A DNA stretch of 64,000 bases from Escherichia coli (GCF_003334405.1 NZ_QOWM01000005.1), one strand, 5' to 3'. Positions 6,980-45,015 are shown, counted from the stretch's first letter. Made by a program: numbers and translations. The notes: generated by a model not told the origin, from the sequence alone.

Positions 6980-8530
6980 ATGTCCACTTCTCATGAAAAT
7001 GCACTGCAACAACGTTGCCAGCAAATTGTCACCAGCCCAGTGCTTAGCCCGGAGCAGAAGCGCCATTTTCTGGCACTGGAAGCAGAAAACAATCTGCCTT
7101 ACCCACAGCTGCCTGCCGAAGCCCGCCGCGCGCTGGATGAAGGTGTAATCTGCGATATGTTTGAAGGTCATGCGCCGTACAAACCGCGCTATGTCTTACC
7201 CGATTACGCCCGTTTTCTGGCGAACGGTTCCGAATGGCTGGAGCTGGAAGGCGCGAAAGATCTTGATGACGCACTCTCTCTGCTGACCATTCTTTACCAC
7301 CACGTACCGTCGGTCACATCGATGCCGGTCTACCTGGGGCAACTGGATGCGTTGTTGCAACCGTATGTTAGAATTCTAACACAAGACGAGATCGATATTC
7401 GAATAAAACGTTTCTGGCGTTACCTCGACAGAACCCTGCCAGACGCCTTTATGCACGCCAATATCGGCCCGTCTGATTCGCCCATTACCCGTGCAATCTT
7501 ACGTGCAGACGCAGAGTTGAAGCAGGTTTCACCGAACCTGACCTTTATCTACGATCCTGAAATCACCCCTGATGACCTACTGCTGGAAGTGGCGAAGAAC
7601 ATCTGTGAATGTAGCAAACCGCACATCGCCAACGGTCCGGTGCATGATAAAATTTTCACAAAAGGGGGCTACGGGATTGTGAGCTGTTACAACTCACTGC
7701 CGCTGGCGGGTGGTGGCAGCACGCTGGTACGCCTTAACCTGAAAGCCATTGCCGAGCGCAGCGAATCGCTGGATGACTTCTTTACGCGCACTCTACCGCA
7801 CTACTGCCAGCAGCAGATCGCCATCATCGATGCGCGGTGTGAATTCCTCTATCAACAATCACACTTCTTTGAGAATAGCTTCCTGGTGAAAGAAGGGCTG
7901 ATTAACCCTGAACGTTTTGTGCCAATGTTTGGCATGTATGGGCTGGCGGAAGCGGTTAACTTGCTGTGTGAGAAAGAAGGGATTGCCGCGCGCTACGGTA
8001 AAGAAGCCGCCGCAAATGAAGTGGGTTATCGCATCAGCGCGCAACTGGCGGAGTTTGTCGCCAATACCCCCGTGAAATATGGCTGGCAAAAACGCGCCAT
8101 GTTACACGCACAGTCGGGGATCAGTTCCGATATCGGCACCACGCCGGGCGCGCGTTTACCCTATGGCGATGAGCCAGATCCGATCACCCATCTGCAAACT
8201 GTCGCCCCGCATCATGCTTATTATTATTCCGGCATCAGCGACATTCTGACGCTCGACGAAACCATCAAACGTAATCCGCAGGCGCTGGTACAGCTTTGCC
8301 TCGGTGCCTTTAAAGCCGGAATGCGTGAATTTACCGCCAATGTCAGCGGTAACGATCTGGTTCGCGTTACCGGTTATATGGTGCGTTTGTCGGATTTAGA
8401 AAAATATCGCGCCGAAGGTTCACGCACCAACACCACCTGGCTGGGCGAAGAAGCCGCACGCAACACTCGTATTCTGGAACGCCAGCCGCGCGTGATAAGC
8501 CATGAACAGCAGATGCGCTTTAGTCAGTAA
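6980..8530 (+). CDS. yjjI: YjjI-family glycyl-radical-enzyme-like protein (516 aa)
   Basis: ORF from ATG 6980 ([17 protein letters not shown]); track ORF extends upstream to 6851; 3' end overlaps yjjW by 29 bp. Confidence 0.9.
7366..7381. promoter_or_regulatory. DeoR operator O1 at deoP1 (perfect palindrome tgttagaattctaaca), inside yjjI coding sequence
   Basis: perfect 16-bp palindrome; 600 bp from O2. Confidence 0.75.
7645..7660. promoter_or_regulatory. candidate distal DeoR operator OE (tgataaaattttcaca, 12 of 16 matches)
   Basis: lies exactly 279 bp beyond O1, the spacing I recall for OE; weaker palindrome. Confidence 0.45.
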
Positions 8531-9366: not shown

Positions 9367-9870
<504 letters not shown>

Positions 9871-17485: not shown

Positions 17486-17660
<175 letters not shown>

Positions 17661-17776: not shown

Positions 17777-17863
17777 GCGAAGGTGGCGGAATTGGTAGAC
17801 GCGCTAGCTTCAGGTGTTAGTGTCCTTACGGACGTGGGGGTTCAAGTCCCCCCCCTCGCACCA
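17777..17863 (+). tRNA. tRNA-Leu (anticodon CAG), single copy
   Basis: 87-nt sequence gcgaaggtggcggaattggtagacgcg...ctcgcacca with encoded CCA end, long variable arm and anticodon loop cttCAGgt. Confidence 0.95.
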
Positions 17864-28081: not shown

Positions 28082-29276
<1,195 letters not shown>

Positions 29277-35029: not shown

Positions 35030-35233
35030 ATGTTTGGTAACTTAGGACAGGCAAAAAAATATCTCGGCCAGGCGGCGAAGATGTTGATTGGCATTCCAGA
35101 CTACGACAACTACGTCGAGCATATGAAGACCAACCATCCCGACAAGCCGTACATGAGCTATGAAGAATTCTTCCGCGAACGCCAGAACGCACGCTACGGC
35201 GGCGATGGTAAAGGCGGTATGCGCTGTTGTTAA
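35030..35233 (+). CDS. yjiX: small protein YjiX (DUF466)
   Basis: 67-aa [51 protein letters not shown]. Confidence 0.85.
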
Positions 35234-35243
35234 TGGAGAGAGC

Positions 35244-36200
35244 ATGAACCCGATTGCAGTTACCCTACTCACCGGTTTTTTAGGCGCGGGCAAAACCACC
35301 CTGCTGCGCCATATTCTTAACGAACAACACGGCTACAAGATTGCCGTGATTGAAAACGAATTCGGCGAAGTCTCCGTTGATGATCAACTGATTGGCGACC
35401 GCGCCACGCAGATCAAAACGCTGACCAACGGCTGCATCTGCTGTTCGCGCTCCAACGAGCTGGAAGACGCACTACTCGACCTGCTGGATAATCTCGACAA
35501 GGGCAATATTCAGTTCGACCGTCTGGTCATTGAATGCACCGGCATGGCCGATCCCGGCCCGATTATTCAGACCTTTTTCTCCCATGAGATTTTATGCCAG
35601 CGCTACCTGCTGGACGGCGTGATTGCGCTGGTGGATGCGGTACATGCCGATGAGCAGATGAACCAGTTCACCATCGCCCAGTCCCAGGTTGGCTACGCCG
35701 ACCGTATTCTGCTGACGAAAACCGACGTCGCAGGCGAAGCAGAGAAACTGCGTGAACGCCTGGCGCGCATCAACGCCCGCGCACCGGTCTACACCGTTAC
35801 CCACGGCGATATCGACCTGGGCCTTCTGTTCAACACCAACGGTTTTATGCTGGAAGAAAACGTCGTCAGCACCAAACCGCGTTTCCACTTTATCACGGAC
35901 AAACAAAACGATATTTCGTCGATTGTGGTGGAACTGGATTACCCGGTAGATATCAGCGAAGTTTCCCGGGTGATGGAAAACCTGCTGCTGGAGTCGGCGG
36001 ATAAACTACTGCGTTACAAAGGGATGCTATGGATTGACGGCGAACCTAACCGCCTGCTATTCCAGGGCGTCCAACGCCTCTACAGCGCCGACTGGGACCG
36101 CCCGTGGGGCGATGAAAAACCGCATAGCACGATGGTGTTTATCGGGATTCAGTTGCCGGAGGAAGAGATTCGGGCAGCGTTTGCGGGGTTGAGGAAGTAA
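35244..36200 (+). CDS. yjiA: COG0523/CobW-family GTPase YjiA
   Basis: 318-aa product MNPIAVTLLTGFLGAGKTTLLRHIL with P-loop and CxCC motif. Confidence 0.93.
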   Translation: MNPIAVTLLTGFLGAGKTTLLRHILNEQHGYKIAVIENEFGEVSVDDQLIGDRATQIKTLTNGCICCSRSNELEDALLDLLDNLDKGNIQFDRLVIECTGMADPGPIIQTFFSHEILCQRYLLDGVIALVDAVHADEQMNQFTIAQSQVGYADRILLTKTDVAGEAEKLRERLARINARAPVYTVTHGDIDLGLLFNTNGFMLEENVVSTKPRFHFITDKQNDISSIVVELDYPVDISEVSRVMENLLLESADKLLRYKGMLWIDGEPNRLLFQGVQRLYSADWDRPWGDEKPHSTMVFIGIQLPEEEIRAAFAGLRK

Positions 36201-36233
36201 TTTTGGATGATGGCCGCCATGTGGCGGCCTGAA

Positions 36234-36536
36234 TTATTTTTTGTTCTGATCGCGCAGCATCGCTTCACGTAAAATTGCGTTCAGGCGAGTTTGATAGCCT
36301 TTACCTGGTCGCTTCAACCATTCCATCACATCAGCATCAATACGCACCGAAGCCTGAGTTTTCAATGGCCGATAAAACTTACCGCGTTCGGCGTTAGACC
36401 ATTGCTCATCGCTGGAAGGTGGGATATCACTGTAATCAATATCTTCGTCGGATTTATTCGCCAGCGCCTTCAGTTCGGCCTCATGCTGCACATCGAGTGT
36501 AGAGGAGGTCCCTCGTTTATGTTTAACCATGCTCAT
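36234..36536 (-). CDS. BrnA-like antitoxin (100 aa, RHH/CopG-like)
   Basis: ORF from ATG 36536 (MSMVKHKRGTSSTLDVQHEAELKAL...VRIDADVMEWLKRPGKGYQTRLNAILREAML); start overlaps the stop of the upstream toxin frame (ATGAGCATGGTTAA). Confidence 0.7.
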   Translation of the reverse strand: MSMVKHKRGTSSTLDVQHEAELKALANKSDEDIDYSDIPPSSDEQWSNAERGKFYRPLKTQASVRIDADVMEWLKRPGKGYQTRLNAILREAMLRDQNKK

Positions 36537-36794
36537 AGCGATTCCTCTCTTTACGATCTGCTTTTCGTGCACTGATGATTCGAATAATTTCATTTCCGCT
36601 TTCGAAACGGATGGTATGCGCAACCAGAATAACCACGATGCCGTAATGTCTGCCAGCGATACTCACCGTTTTCTATGCGTTCTTGCTGTGACAAATGTTG
36701 TGGATCATCAAACAATAACACCGCATCTTCAAAGCGGATGCCATGTTTCACCCGATTACTTTTGGCCTTGTTTTCATCCCATTCAAACTCCATT
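36523..36794 (-). pseudogene. BrnT-like (DUF497) toxin gene disrupted by a 1-nt frameshift near 36640-36650
   Basis: N-terminal frame MEFEWDENKAKSNRVKHGIRFEDAVLLFDDPQHLSQQERIENGEYRWQTL then runs into a stop at 36590; the BrnT-like C-terminus GIVVILVAHTIRFESGNEIIRIISARKADRKERNRYEHG is in a different frame ending at TAA 36523. Confidence 0.65.
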
Positions 36795-36997
36795 GGCATA
36801 ATTGCCATCCCTAATTGTATATACAAAAATGTATCTACAATTATTCTGCAATTATAGCGTTGATGTTGGAAATAGCATCACGTTTCGAATAATCAACCAT
36901 GAAATTGACAATGAGTAAGTTGGACTTGATTCATCCAATAGAATTTCTCGCCTGACATGGCACACTAAACACCTCGCTGTCGGGTAATGACTCCAAC

Positions 36998-37501
36998 TTA
37001 CTGATAGTGTTTTATGTTCAGATAATGCCCGATGACCTTGTCATGCAGCTCCACCGATTTTGAGAACGACAGTGACTTCCGTCCCAGCCTTGCCAGATGT
37101 TGTCTCAGATTCAGATTATGTCGCTCAATGCGCTGAGTGTAACGCTTGCTGATAACGTGCAGCTTTCCCTTCAGGCGTGATTCATACAGCGGCCAGCCAT
37201 CCGTCATCTATACCACGACCTCAAAGGCCGACAGCAGGCTCAGAAGACGTTCCAGTGTGGCCAGAGTGCGTTCACCGAAGACGTGCGCCACAACCGTCCT
37301 CCGTATCCTGTCATACGCGTAAAACAGCCAGCGCTGACGTGATTTAGCACCGACGTAGCCCCACTGTTCGTCCATTTCAGCGCAGACAATCACATCACTG
37401 CCCGGTTGTATGCGCGAGGTTACCGACTGCGGCCTGAGTTTTTTAAGTGACGTAAAACCGTGTTGAGGCCAACGCCCATAATGCGTGCACTGGCGCGACA
37501 T
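36998..37501 (-). CDS. insB: IS1 InsB reading frame (expressed as InsAB' by frameshifting)
   Basis: ORF ending [69 protein letters not shown]. Confidence 0.9.
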
Positions 37502-37695
37502 CCGACGCCATTCATGGCCATATCAATGATTTTCTGGTGCGTACCGGGCTGAGAGGCGGTGTAAGTGAACTGTAGTTGCCATGTTTTACGGCAATGAGAG
37601 CAGAGATAGCGCTGATGTCCGGCAGTGCTTTTGCCGTTACGCACCACGCCTTCAGTAGCGGAGCAGGAAGGACATCTGATGGAAATGGAAGCCAC
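37420..37695 (-). CDS. insA: IS1 protein InsA
   Basis: 91-aa [46 protein letters not shown]. Confidence 0.95.
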
Positions 37696-37750
37696 GCAAG
37701 CACCTTAAAATCACCATCATACACTAAATCAGTAAGTTGGCAGCATTACC

Positions 37751-37846
37751 CGGATTCCATAATGATTCCACGCCCCGTTATGACAAATCTGCCGCCGATC
37801 TTGCCTGGCAAAGGACACTGAAATGGTTCGATAAATATCTCTCCTG
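37751..37846 (+). pseudogene. 3' remnant (31 codons plus stop) of a dienelactone-hydrolase-family gene truncated by IS1
   Basis: frame starting directly at the IS1 boundary encodes [31 protein letters not shown]-stop, which resembles a DLH-family C-terminus. Confidence 0.5.
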
Positions 37847-37965
37847 ATAGGTTTATCTCTTACGGGATTACGTCTTAAACAAGCATGAAAAAATAGCGTG
37901 CGCAAAAGTCGTTCTTTGCCTAAAATATCGCTATATATGGCGATATATAGCGAATAAAGTGAACG

Positions 37966-39225
37966 ATGAATAACCATTTTGGTAAAGGCTTAATGGCGGG
38001 ATTAAAAGCAACGCATGCCGCCACGCTGTTTTTCCCGATGGAGTTGATTTTGTATGATTTTGCCGCGTACCTGTCGACGGACCTGATTCAGCCGGGGATC
38101 ATTAATGTGGTCCGTGATTTTAATGCCGATGTCAGTCTGGCCCCGGCAGCCGTCAGTCTCTATCTCGCGGGCGGTATGGCGTTACAGTGGCTGCTGGGGC
38201 CGCTTTCCGACAGGATTGGCCGCAGGCCGGTGCTGATTACCGGGGCGCTAATATTTACCCTTGCCTGCGCTGCGACAATGTTCACAACGTCTATGACACA
38301 GTTTCTTATCGCGCGTGCAATTCAGGGCACCAGTATCTGTTTTATTGCCACCGTTGGTTATGTCACGGTGCAGGAGGCGTTCGGCCAGACAAAAGGGATC
38401 AGGTTGATGGCGATTATCACCTCCATCGTACTGATTGCGCCGATTATTGGCCCGCTTTCCGGCGCAGCTCTGATGCACTTTGTGCACTGGAAAGTCCTTT
38501 TTGCCATCATTGCGGTTATGGGGTTTATCTCATTTGTTGGCTTACTGCTGGCGATGCCAGAGACGGTGAAGCGCGGCGCGGTTCCATTTAGCGCCAAAAG
38601 CGTCTTGCGCGATTTTCGTAATGTCTTTTGCAATCGGCTGTTCCTCTTTGGCGCAGCAACCATCTCTTTAAGCTATATCCCAATGATGAGTTGGGTGGCT
38701 GTCTCGCCGGTGATCCTGATCGACGCGGGCGGCTTAACAACTTCGCAGTTCGCCTGGACACAGGTTCCGGTGTTCGGCGCGGTGATTGTCGCGAATGCCA
38801 TCGTGGCGCGTTTCGTTAAAGATCCAACCGAACCGCGCTTCATCTGGCGTGCCGTACCCATTCAACTGGTCGGCCTCGCGCTGTTGATTATCGGCAATCT
38901 GCTGTCACCGCACGTCTGGCTGTGGTCGGTGCTGGGCACCAGTTTGTATGCTTTCGGGATTGGTTTGATCTTCCCGACCTTATTCCGCTTTACGCTTTTT
39001 TCCAATAACTTACCGAAAGGGACCGTCTCCGCATCGCTGAATATGGTGATCCTGATGGTGATGTCTGTCTCGGTCGAAATCGGCCGCTGGCTGTGGTTTA
39101 ACGGCGGTCGCTTGCCGTTTCATCTGTTAGCCGTCGTGGCGGGCGTTATCGTCGTTTTCACCCTGGCAGGATTGCTTAATCGCGTGCGCCAACATCAGGC
39201 TGCCGAGCTGGCGGAGGAGCGGTGA
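37966..39225 (+). CDS. mdtM: MFS multidrug efflux transporter MdtM
   Basis: 419-aa ORF with MFS motif [16 protein letters not shown]; N-terminal residues and true start not verified. Confidence 0.88.
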
Positions 39226-39265
39226 TTTTTGCGCGATCCTGCCGTCAGGCTCTATTCTTAACGTT

Positions 39266-40546
39266 ATGAATAAACTCATTGAACTCAGACGCGCCAAAAT
39301 GTTGGCGCTCTCTTTACTGCTTATCGCCGCTGCTACCTTTGTCGTTACGCTGTTTTTGCCGCCCAATTTTTGGGTGAGCGGCGTGAAGGCGATTGCTGAA
39401 GCGGCGATGGTCGGCGCGCTGGCGGACTGGTTTGCGGTGGTGGCGCTGTTTCGCCGCGTGCCGATTCCGATCATTTCTCGTCATACGGCGATTATCCCGC
39501 GTAATAAAGACCGGATTGGCGAAAATCTCGGCCAGTTCGTGCAGGAAAAATTTCTCGATACCCAGTCGCTGGTGGCATTGATTCGACGTCACGAACCGGC
39601 GTTGTTGATTGGCAACTGGTTTAGTCAGCCGGAGAACGCCCGCCGCGTTGGTCAGCATCTGTTGCAGATCATGAGCGGTTTTCTTGAACTGACCGATGAT
39701 GCGCGTATTCAGCGCCTGCTTAAGCGCGCGGTCCATCGGGCGATTGATAAGGTCGATCTTTCCGGCACCAGTGCGTTGATGCTGGAGAGTATGACCAAAA
39801 ACAATCGTCATCAGGTGCTGCTGGATACGCTGATCGCACAGTTGATCGCCCTTCTCCAGCGCGATAAATCGCGCAAGTTTATTGCCCAGCAAATTGTTCG
39901 CTGGCTGGAGAGCGAGCATCCGCTGAAAGCCAAAATTTTGCCTACTGAATGGCTGGGCGAACATAGCGCGGAGTTGGTTTCTGACGCGGTGAATTCTTTG
40001 CTTGATGATATCAGCCGCGATCGTGCGCATCAGATCCGCCATGCATTTGATCGCGCCACCTTTGCCCTGATCGACAAGTTGAAAAACGATCCGGAAATGG
40101 CAGCGCGAGCCGATGCCGTAAAAAGTTATCTGAAAGAAGATGAAGCTTTTAACCGCTATCTCAGTGAATTGTGGGGGGATTTACGGGAATGGCTGAAAGC
40201 GGATATCAACAGTGAAGATTCTCGTGTGAAAGAACGTATCGCGCGGGCGGGTCAATGGTTTGGCGAAACGTTAATTGCCGATGATGCCTTGCGGGCATCG
40301 TTAAATGGTCACCTGGAACAAGCCGCGCACCGCGTCGCGCCTGAGTTTTCCGCATTCCTGACGCGCCACATCAGCGATACAGTAAAAAGCTGGGATGCTC
40401 GGGATATGTCGCGGCAAATCGAGTTAAATATCGGCAAAGATCTGCAGTTTATCCGTGTCAACGGTACGCTGGTTGGCGGTTGTATTGGGCTAATTTTATA
40501 TTTGTTGTCGCAGCTCCCGGCCTTGTTCCCCCTCAGCAATTTTTAG
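39266..40546 (+). CDS. yjiN: DUF445-family inner membrane protein YjiN
   Basis: 426-aa [34 protein letters not shown]. Confidence 0.85.
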
Positions 40547-40661
40547 AAATCCATGAAAAACTAAGTGGCTAACCGCGAGAGAGATCAAATAAACCACACT
40601 AAAAGAATGGTAATAATGTGGCCTCTTTTCATTATCTCCCGTGGTACGGGGAAGGAAAATC

Positions 40662-43769
<3,108 letters not shown>

Positions 43770-43836
43770 CAGGCTGGCATATTTCACCTTTTTGTTATTA
43801 ACTTGTTAACAACAAAAATGACATACAAGGTTAAAC

Positions 43837-45015
43837 ATGCCTTCGTCCTCGCATCCCGTAGAACGCTTTTCTTTCAGCACCGCGCTTTTCGGGATGCTGG
43901 TTCTGACCTTAGGTATGGGATTAGGTCGCTTCCTTTATACGCCTATGTTGCCCGTCATGATGGCGGAAGGGGCGTTTTCATTTAGCCAGCTCTCGTGGAT
44001 TGCCAGCGGCAACTATGCGGGGTATCTGGCTGGCAGTCTGCTATTTTCGTTTGGCGCATTTCACCAGCCGTCGCGCCTGCGCCCATTTCTGTTGGTTTCT
44101 GCCCTGGCGAGCGGGTTGTTGATCCTCGCAATGGCATGGTTGCCGCCATTTATTCTGGTGTTATTGATTCGCTTCCTGGCGGGTGTCGCCAGCGCCGGTA
44201 TGCTGATTTTTGGTTCGACGCTGATTATGCAGCACACGCGCCATCCTTTTGTGCTGGCAGCTTTGTTTTCTGGCGTTGGCATTGGCATTGCACTGGGCAA
44301 CGAATATGTTCTGGCAGGCCTGCATTTTGCCTTCTCCTCGCAAACGTTATGGCAAGGCGCCGGGGCGCTTTCTGGCATGATGCTGATTGCACTTACGCTT
44401 TTAATGCCCTCGAAAAAACACGCCATCGCACCAATGCCATTGGCAAAAACGGAGCAACAGATAATGAGCTGGTGGTTACTGGCTATTCTGTACGGCCTGG
44501 CGGGATTTGGTTATATCATCGTCGCGACTTACCTGCCGCTCATGGCGAAAGATGCAGGCTCACCATTGTTAACCGCCCATCTCTGGACGTTAGTCGGCTT
44601 ATCAATTGTGCCAGGCTGCTTTGGCTGGCTATGGGCAGCAAAACGTTGGGGGGCTTTGCCTTGCCTGACGGCGAATTTGCTGGTGCAGGCTATCAGTGTG
44701 CTGCTTACTCTCGCCAGCGACTCTCCTCTCTTGCTTATCATTAGTAGTATCGGTTTTGGCGGTACCTTTATGGGCACGACATCTCTGGTGATGACTATCG
44801 CCCGCCAACTGAGCGTTCCGGGAAATCTCAATCTTTTAGGCTTTGTGACGCTCATTTACGGCATTGGACAAATCCTCGGCCCGGCGCTGACCAGTATGCT
44901 CGGCAATGGAACATCGGCGCTTGCCAGCGCCACTCTCTGCGGCGCGGCGGCGTTGTTTATTGCTGCGCTTATCAGCACAGTGCAATTATTTAAGCTACAA
45001 GTGGTCACTTCATGA
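43837..45015 (+). CDS. yjiJ: MFS transporter YjiJ
   Basis: 392-aa multi-[37 protein letters not shown]. Confidence 0.88.

Follow-up and report, generated by a model that had tools for sequence, protein, structure and literature searches.

A brnTA toxin-antitoxin locus of Escherichia coli with an 11-bp deletion in the toxin gene and an intact antitoxin gene

Introduction

In toxin-antitoxin (TA) systems of the BrnT/BrnA type, the toxin gene precedes the antitoxin gene, this being the T/A order given for PF_BrnT in PMC11980606, and the antitoxin BrnA is an RHH protein for which autoregulation of brnTA has been reported (PMC5086665, PMC11980606). According to the review PMC5086665, which cites Heaton 2012, the RNase activity of Brucella BrnT depends in an important way on Asp6, Glu7, Lys9, Arg41 and Glu78, and the same review describes the BrnT fold as a four-stranded antiparallel sheet packed on two short helices. 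A 2025 review (PMC12707154) names brnAT as one of the TA systems of the immigration control region (ICR), a defence island of Enterobacteriaceae for which yjiA and yjiN serve as anchors. Surveys reviewed in PMC7354431 have encountered type II TA loci that had degraded to an orphan antitoxin, most of the orphans being remnants of canonical pairs, and orphan antitoxins have also been discussed as anti-addiction modules (PMC7354431).

Here, we describe a chromosomal brnTA locus of E. coli in which the reading frame of the toxin is broken and that of the antitoxin is not. It lies in a stretch of 64 kb, which as a whole is referred to as the window, and it had been pointed out in an earlier note on this DNA as a frameshifted BrnT-like gene beside an intact BrnA-like one. 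We have located the lesion, traced it through the complete E. coli genomes, and asked what has become of the antitoxin gene in the genomes that carry it.

Results

Gene layout at the locus

Both brnT and brnA are read from the minus strand of the window (Table 1). Translation of brnT can begin at the ATG at 36799-36797 (MPMEFEW, the RefSeq choice) or at the ATG at 36793-36791 (MEFEW). Frame 0 runs to ...NGEYRWQT, continues with LRHRGYSGCAYHPFRKRK and is terminated by the TGA at 36592-36590, whereas the C-terminus of BrnT is found in the +1 frame, which reads ...YGIVVILVAHTIRFESGNEIIRIISARKADRKERNRYEHG and is terminated by the TAA at 36525-36523. This TAA is situated inside brnA, whose ATG occupies 36536-36534 within the overlap string ATGAGCATGGTTAA; from the brnA ATG to the end of the brnT TAA there are 14 nt, and this stop/start overlap together with the toxin-first order corresponds to the canonical layout of a brnTA operon. 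The brnA frame then continues without interruption for 100 amino acids to a stop codon at 36236-36234. The earlier note had read the stop of the toxin frame at 36590, the displacement of the BrnT C-terminus into another frame, the overlap of its TAA with the antitoxin ATG and the intactness of the 100-aa antitoxin frame in the same way, and all of this holds. The span that it gave, 36523-36794, contains a real feature, but with 36794 as its end it misses the ATG of MEFEW by one base.

A tblastn search of the window with intact E. coli BrnT aligned residues 1-52 in frame -1 and residues 56-95 in frame -2 (100% identity), and found no second brnT copy in the 64 kb.

Table 1. Features of the brnTA locus, in coordinates of the window
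Feature	Position	Strand	Basis
GC-rich hairpin between convergent brnA and yjiA	36212..36229	.	consensus scan
brnA, intact, 100 aa	36234..36536	-	identity to WP_000063156.1, Pfam PF14384
brnT pseudogene, whole remnant, 277 nt (intact allele 288 nt, 95 aa)	36523..36799	-	alignment to intact allele L001:3102-3389, tblastn, RefSeq
brnT C-terminal remnant, +1 frame, Tyr56-Gly95 including Glu88, and TAA	36523..36645	-	tblastn, residue mapping
Putative Shine-Dalgarno sequence AGAGAGG of brnA	36544..36550	-	sequence reading, presumed function
brnT N-terminal ORF, 51 native residues and 18 out-of-frame residues, then TGA, 69 aa	36590..36799	-	
11-bp deletion junction	36646..36647	-	alignment and 40-nt junction probe
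Putative promoter/operator of brnT	36799..36856	-	repeat search and motif count, presumed operator role

Family assignment and the residues lost from the toxin

The BrnT/BrnA identity that had been suggested for the two genes was corroborated by profile searches. Intact (repaired) BrnT covers positions 1-77 of the 77 positions of Pfam BrnT_toxin PF04365, a family of RNases in the RelE/ParE superfamily (E = 4.7e-24), and residues 37-93 of BrnA cover positions 1-68 of the 68 positions of BrnA_antitoxin PF14384 (E = 3.1e-17); by their scores, both matches are far beyond chance. When the antitoxin and the truncated, remnant and repaired forms of the toxin were scanned against NCBIfam, no family was obtained at E <= 0.01.

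With respect to known structures, intact BrnT is 84% identical over 94 residues to chain A of PDB 7VD7 (E = 4e-52), and its relationship to Brucella abortus BrnT (3U97) is distant (E = 1.6e-4, with 29 of 88 aligned residues identical). The antitoxin of the window, which is identical to WP_000063156.1 and thus the same allele as is found beside intact brnT, matches the antitoxin chain B of 7VD7 with residues 14-57 (E = 1.4e-16). Hence, the N-terminal half of BrnA is likely to be the toxin-binding part and the C-terminal half the RHH DNA-binding part. The chains of 7VD7 have been deposited merely as 'toxin' and 'antitoxin', and a literature search found no paper describing this entry.

The 69-aa product that the window encodes matches PF04365 at model positions 1-47 of 77 only (E = 2.1e-12), such that model positions 48-77 (30 of the 77) are missing, and the C-terminal 44 residues of the protein are gone. 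It thus fails full-length membership in the family, and the window carries a BrnT gene by descent and no intact member. In a HMMER alignment, the five residues linked to the RNase activity in Brucella fall on identical residues in E. coli, namely Asp8, Glu9, Lys11, Arg48 and Glu88. Because the frameshift falls after Thr51, Glu88 is lost, as it lies downstream and is not translated in frame, and the set is therefore incomplete in the window. If the hydrophobic alternation of residues 46-81 is read against the fold given in PMC5086665, the lost alternating-hydrophobic segments 52-81 would form most of the sheet. The 69-aa product is presumably non-toxic. A single-sequence AlphaFold2 model of intact BrnT was poor and all-helical (mean pLDDT 63, pTM 0.34), and we discarded it.

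An 11-bp deletion in brnT

Alignment to an intact brnT/brnA run, as the earlier note had advised, located the indel. The segment 36200-36900 of the window (701 bp) departs from the intact allele of strain Eco889 in a single respect, the absence of ATCGGCCTGGT between 36647 and 36646; on either side of the junction, over 254 bases ahead of it and 447 bases behind it, the two sequences are identical. The junction reads CAGACA/TTACGG in the window (the slash marking the point of loss). The deletion removes the codons for Ile52, Gly53 and Leu54 as well as two bases of the codon for Val55, and it shifts the remainder to the +1 frame. Its placement is unique, the sequence lost is non-repetitive, and neither a homopolymer nor a tandem repeat nor flanking microhomology is present at the junction.

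The lesion had been thought to consist of an extra single base, which is not borne out by this comparison, since what distinguishes the window from the Eco889 allele is the loss of 11 bp. Removing one base, as had been proposed, does restore the frame and gives 89 aa counted from MEFEW, but the real 95-aa protein is not regained in this way: the product of such a 'repair' would still be without Ile52, Gly53 and Leu54, and Val55 would be altered. The allele that contains the 11 bp is the ancestral one, because it reads as one ORF that covers the family model in full and because 7VD7 has the corresponding residues (TLGLVHG).

Occurrence of the deletion in other genomes

We searched 5,426 complete E. 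coli genomes with a 40-nt probe centred on the junction, which cannot seed in intact alleles. The junction was present in exactly 24 of them, in all cases on the chromosome. Their sources include human, pig, cattle, dog, frog, river water and wastewater, and they come from several continents. All of the 11 deletion genomes that were inspected for this purpose carry the RefSeq label 'BrnT family toxin, frameshifted'. The protein alleles of yjiA, btsT, tsr and mdtM are common to the deletion-bearing genomes, and from IS1 through lgoT these genomes and the window agree to 99.9%, with 6-8 SNPs over 8.2 kb. Six genomes were opened with long flanks, and in four of these ISKpn26 is inserted at the same position as in the window, by an intact lgoT, while in the other two it is found elsewhere. 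Since the flanking alleles and the ISKpn26 insertion are thus common to the window and those genomes, the deletion allele has been inherited.

The transposase gene of this ISKpn26 (IS5-like) element is at 28228-29208 on the minus strand of the window, where it adjoins lgoT and marks the shared lineage. In LSN03-016011/A, lgoT is cut short by ISKpn26, and in ET776 the element stands in place of tsr-lgoT.

Recombination on the mdtM side and the IS1 copy

On the mdtM-yjiN side (38014-43872), the window is approximately 97.2% identical to the deletion genomes, as opposed to the 99.9% on the yjiA side, and its IS1 differs from theirs at three sites, which are SNPs of another haplotype. The divergent right flank and the SNPs in IS1 together indicate a recombination breakpoint at about 36900-37209, in or near IS1. 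The deletion allele, as these alignments are read, is found on at least two different right-hand flanks. An exact match to the window over 15 kb was not present in the collection of complete E. coli genomes.

The IS1 upstream of brnT (36998-37695, minus strand) has a TGG-to-TAG stop in insB at 37209 (…FEVVV*MTDGW…), and this copy is therefore a pseudogene. The insB stop is also found in Eco889, where it is annotated as an 'internal stop', and IS1 is intact in the deletion-bearing RefSeq genomes that were opened.

The immigration control region and brnTA across E. coli

The brnTA locus is situated at the yjiA-proximal edge of the ICR, the variable segment bounded by yjiA and yjiN; in the window, yjiA occupies 35160-36200 and mdtM 37966-39225, and yjiN lies beyond mdtM. 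The ICR is 'empty' in the window in the sense that 35160-39225 holds brnTA, IS1 and a short dienelactone-hydrolase fragment (Eco889 annotation), and no restriction-modification, mcr, mrr or symE genes are found between yjiA and mdtM. The overall layout of this empty ICR is common, over 15 kb, to at least 1,193 genomes.

A megablast search of the 5,426 complete genomes with 36200-36900 found the locus in 2,113, most of the matches having 712 bases as against the 701 of the window. Near full-length brnTA was present in 1,781 genomes and a partial brnT with brnA in 332, and the ancestral single-frame brnT was found in about 1,750. In approximately 505 further genomes, there is only a diverged 63-aa N-terminal rump of BrnA (77-80% DNA identity) by yjiA. 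Such a rump, for instance at 3001-3192 of L016 (strain 07_3636), is annotated as 'antitoxin' and comprises the toxin-binding half, with no RHH half and no brnT.

The toxin gene has also been lost independently in other genomes. In L003 and L004 (at about 1602-1708), where a type I RM/restriction cluster adjoins the locus, an internal deletion of approximately 158 bp has reduced brnT to 34 codons, and in L005 and L006 (at about 2501-2563), a 5′ truncation has left the last 63 nt, abutting a Fic/GmrSD island. Since brnA is intact in all four of these genomes, there are, by this comparison, at least two other independent losses of brnT at the locus in which brnA was spared. Most of the differences among the brnA alleles of toxin-less lineages are synonymous (L005 and L006, for example, are separated by 8 synonymous and 2 nonsynonymous changes, pN/pS ~0.07), and the SNPs between these alleles are clustered, as is the case for recombined patches. 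The low pN/pS could reflect selection on the orphan gene, but we do not take it as evidence of this, since the clustered differences may have been imported by recombination.

With respect to a possible other partner for BrnA, Escherichia plasmids rarely carry a close homologue of BrnT, 11 plasmids in PLSDB doing so. NZ_LT985269.1 is a plasmid whose BrnT is 100% identical, and the one non-identical Escherichia plasmid match among those listed is 45% identical. None of the E. coli genomes searched has more than two matching places. From the rarity of plasmid homologues and the maximum of two matching places per genome, it follows that there is no obvious second toxin for BrnA.

Control region of the operon

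The DNA ahead of brnT contains a perfect TATAAT (36856-36851) with a weak -35 element, and a consensus promoter scan gave nothing on the brnT strand, for which reason we speak of a putative brnT promoter. Four TAATTGY half-sites are found within 56 bp, two on the plus strand (36799-36805 and 36812-36818) and two on the minus strand (36837-36843 and 36848-36854). They constitute two nested inverted repeats over the -10 box that extend to the brnT ATG, and they are four of the 23 TAATTGY sites in the whole 64 kb. The repeat search gave here an inverted repeat, I2, with 14-nt arms that are 93% complementary, and a tandem 11-mer, D1. The TAATTGY array fits an RHH operator, which would make it a putative binding site for BrnA.

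The 11-nt tandem repeat (36834-36855) is listed as overlapping the start codon of brnT as well as the perfect TATAAT. Strain WP3-W18-ESBL-08 (L004) is one copy of this repeat short, and the repeat number is thus strain-variable.

At the other end of the locus, the hairpin between brnA and yjiA (Table 1) is predicted to be terminator-like for yjiA on the plus strand and is possibly bidirectional. No Rfam RNA family was found in or near the brnTA locus. Elsewhere in the window, Rfam reports five REP-type naRNA4 copies, four of them in tandem at 9404-9785, one also on the opposite strand, and a further one at 17555-17637, as well as a tRNA gene at 17777-17860; the tRNA and the naRNA4 copies are unrelated to the brnT finding.

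State of the antitoxin gene

The predicted Shine-Dalgarno-like sequence of brnA, as read from the DNA, is AGAGAGG, and 7 nt separate the end of its GAGG from the ATG of brnA. In the minimum-energy RNA fold, this sequence is paired with a downstream CCUCCUC, but the fold is no stabler than those of shuffled sequences (z = -0.28), and we draw nothing from it as to how far brnA depends on coupling. The premature stop of brnT lies 53 nt upstream of the brnA ATG, whereas the stop was formerly 11 nt inside brnA, and the stop/start coupling of the two genes has thereby been lost.

Among the 24 deletion genomes, brnA is wild type in 21, carries one missense change (N86H) in one and a nonsense change (E31*) in two, and synonymous changes are found in none. 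For this tally, 18 of the 24 were identical to the window over the 701 bp and hence have a wild-type brnA, and the other six were inspected singly. The E31* change (G-to-T, at the window-equivalent position 36446) is found in QDFD216 (dog, China) and 50EVAW (human, Singapore), and N86H, which is in the RHH half and results from a double substitution at 36282-36281, in ST12468 (L012). The gene with the E31* change is at 7365-7667 in QDFD216 (L011) and at 565-867 in 50EVAW (L013), and PGAP rescues from it a 68-aa rump, WP_251379885.1.

A brnA null allele would not be expected to survive beside a live toxin, and from its occurrence in the deletion background, the toxin is evidently no longer alive and brnA no longer needed. 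Small as the numbers are, the brnA changes in the deletion lineage point to a relaxed constraint on the gene. Furthermore, over the 701 bp the missing 11 bp are all that sets the deletion allele apart from the common intact haplotype, which argues that the deletion is young. For so young a deletion, an intact brnA of 303 nt is the default expectation, and its intactness is therefore no evidence of retention.

Discussion

Proposed decay of the operon and alternative readings

We propose that the brnT/brnA locus of the window is a type II TA operon in the first stage of decay, its toxin having been killed by an inherited 11-bp deletion, and we hold this reading with a probability of roughly 0.93. 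The deletion shifts the frame after Thr51 and leads to a product of 69 aa. The deletion allele is common to a small lineage of E. coli, and recombination has moved it onto at least one further flank. The promoter/operator region, the ribosome-binding site of brnA and brnA itself are untouched by the deletion, such that BrnA is probably still made. It would then act as an orphan RHH repressor of its own promoter, probably with no toxin left to neutralise. On this proposal, brnA would be intact mainly owing to the young age of the deletion, and it would now be dispensable and decaying in a part of the lineage.

Where one frameshift is the sole defect of a gene, it resembles an error, and the earlier note had accordingly left the choice between an orphaned antitoxin after toxin decay and a base-call error, in which case the gene would truly be intact and its frameshift an artefact of sequencing or assembly. 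The part of this claim that concerns toxin decay stands, but an error does not account for the difference, which amounts to 11 bp of non-repetitive sequence and involves no change in homopolymer length; nor does it account for an identical junction in 24 complete genomes that were sequenced and assembled independently, or for flanking alleles and an ISKpn26 insertion held in common, which speak for an inherited allele. We therefore regard a base-call error as excluded for practical purposes. Hardly more credible is a recoding event in which a programmed +1 shift of the ribosome, somewhere from 36666 to 36590, would restore a functional toxin. It is true that the two brnT frames overlap in an open window of 77 nt, but the arrangement goes back to a recent deletion in an ancestral single-frame gene, and direct reading of the overlap reveals no slippery or prfB-like motif. 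Even a perfect +1 shift would leave the protein without Ile52, Gly53 and Leu54, and thereby without a Gly that is conserved in the family and corresponds to Gly46 of Brucella in the alignment, and brnA nonsense alleles are tolerated in the deletion background. A fusion or -1 slippage of the truncated brnT into the brnA frame was also considered and rejected, as direct reading found no slippery heptamer in the overlap. One might further suppose that the 69-aa BrnT is itself still active, whether through weak toxicity or by acting as co-repressor in a complex with BrnA. The fragment keeps four of the five RNase-linked residues (Asp8, Glu9, Lys11, Arg48) and a recognisable PF04365 match (2.1e-12), but it is without 30 of the 77 positions of the family model and without Glu88, most of the four-stranded sheet described in PMC5086665 should fall within the part that is lost, and brnA E31* is viable alongside the fragment. 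We consider an active fragment highly improbable.

More weight, while still unlikely, has the possibility that orphan BrnA has repeatedly been kept by selection, be it for anti-addiction against an incoming brnTA on a plasmid or phage, or as a transcription factor or regulator at the boundary of the defence island. In favor of this, brnA is intact in at least three independently toxin-less arrangements, the brnA alleles of toxin-less lineages differ mainly at synonymous sites, as exemplified by L005 and L006, and the putative operator array and the Shine-Dalgarno sequence are intact in the window. Against it, the brnA changes within the deletion lineage are nonsense (two genomes) and missense (one genome) and in no case synonymous, and the clustering of the synonymous differences elsewhere suggests imported patches that evolved in intact operons. 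Moreover, about 505 genomes have only the 63-aa BrnA rump, which is without the DNA-binding half, and close BrnT homologues are seldom found on Escherichia plasmids (the 11 in PLSDB). The evidence thus leans against an orphan BrnA that is retained for a function of its own. If BrnA were retained after all, the arrangements with a dead toxin and an intact antitoxin would line up as a natural series in which an antitoxin becomes domesticated.

Family, locus and exact pseudogene are all known already and are annotated in public genomes. What decay of the brnTA operon offers here is a clean and datable example of the order in which TA systems are expected to decay, with a known ancestor, a deletion defined to the base and a later nonsense change in brnA. 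With respect to annotation, brnT in this strain is a pseudogene and brnA an orphan antitoxin, and the pair should be left out of any count of functional TA or defence modules.

Comparison with known systems

The nearest counterpart of the locus is the chromosomal brnTA of Eco889 (BrnT WP_001297643.1, BrnA WP_000063156.1), which occupies the same site between IS1/mdtM and yjiA. The brnA gene, the promoter/operator region and the 14-nt stop/start overlap are identical in the two, and the window differs in that brnT is without the 11 bp. The 24 RefSeq genomes with a 'BrnT family toxin, frameshifted' (e.g., SCU-172, LHM10-1 and MIN9) have the same junction as the window, but they differ from it on the mdtM-yjiN side, which is approximately 97.2% identical, and in their IS1, which is without the insB stop.

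In the 7VD7 complex, in contrast to the window, the toxin is intact, and it belongs to another organism or is another allele than E. coli BrnT. To our knowledge, BrnT/BrnA of E. coli have not been tested experimentally. BrnT/BrnA of Brucella abortus (PDB 3U97) belong to the same Pfam families as the E. coli proteins and have the same toxin-first gene order. All five residues linked to RNase activity in Brucella are conserved in intact E. coli BrnT, whereas the copy in the window is a pseudogene.

Finally, the locus resembles the degraded TA loci with orphan antitoxins (PMC7354431) in that the toxin was lost first while the antitoxin ORF is intact. Unlike for those loci, the inactivating event, the ancestor and the later decay of the antitoxin are here all visible within one species.
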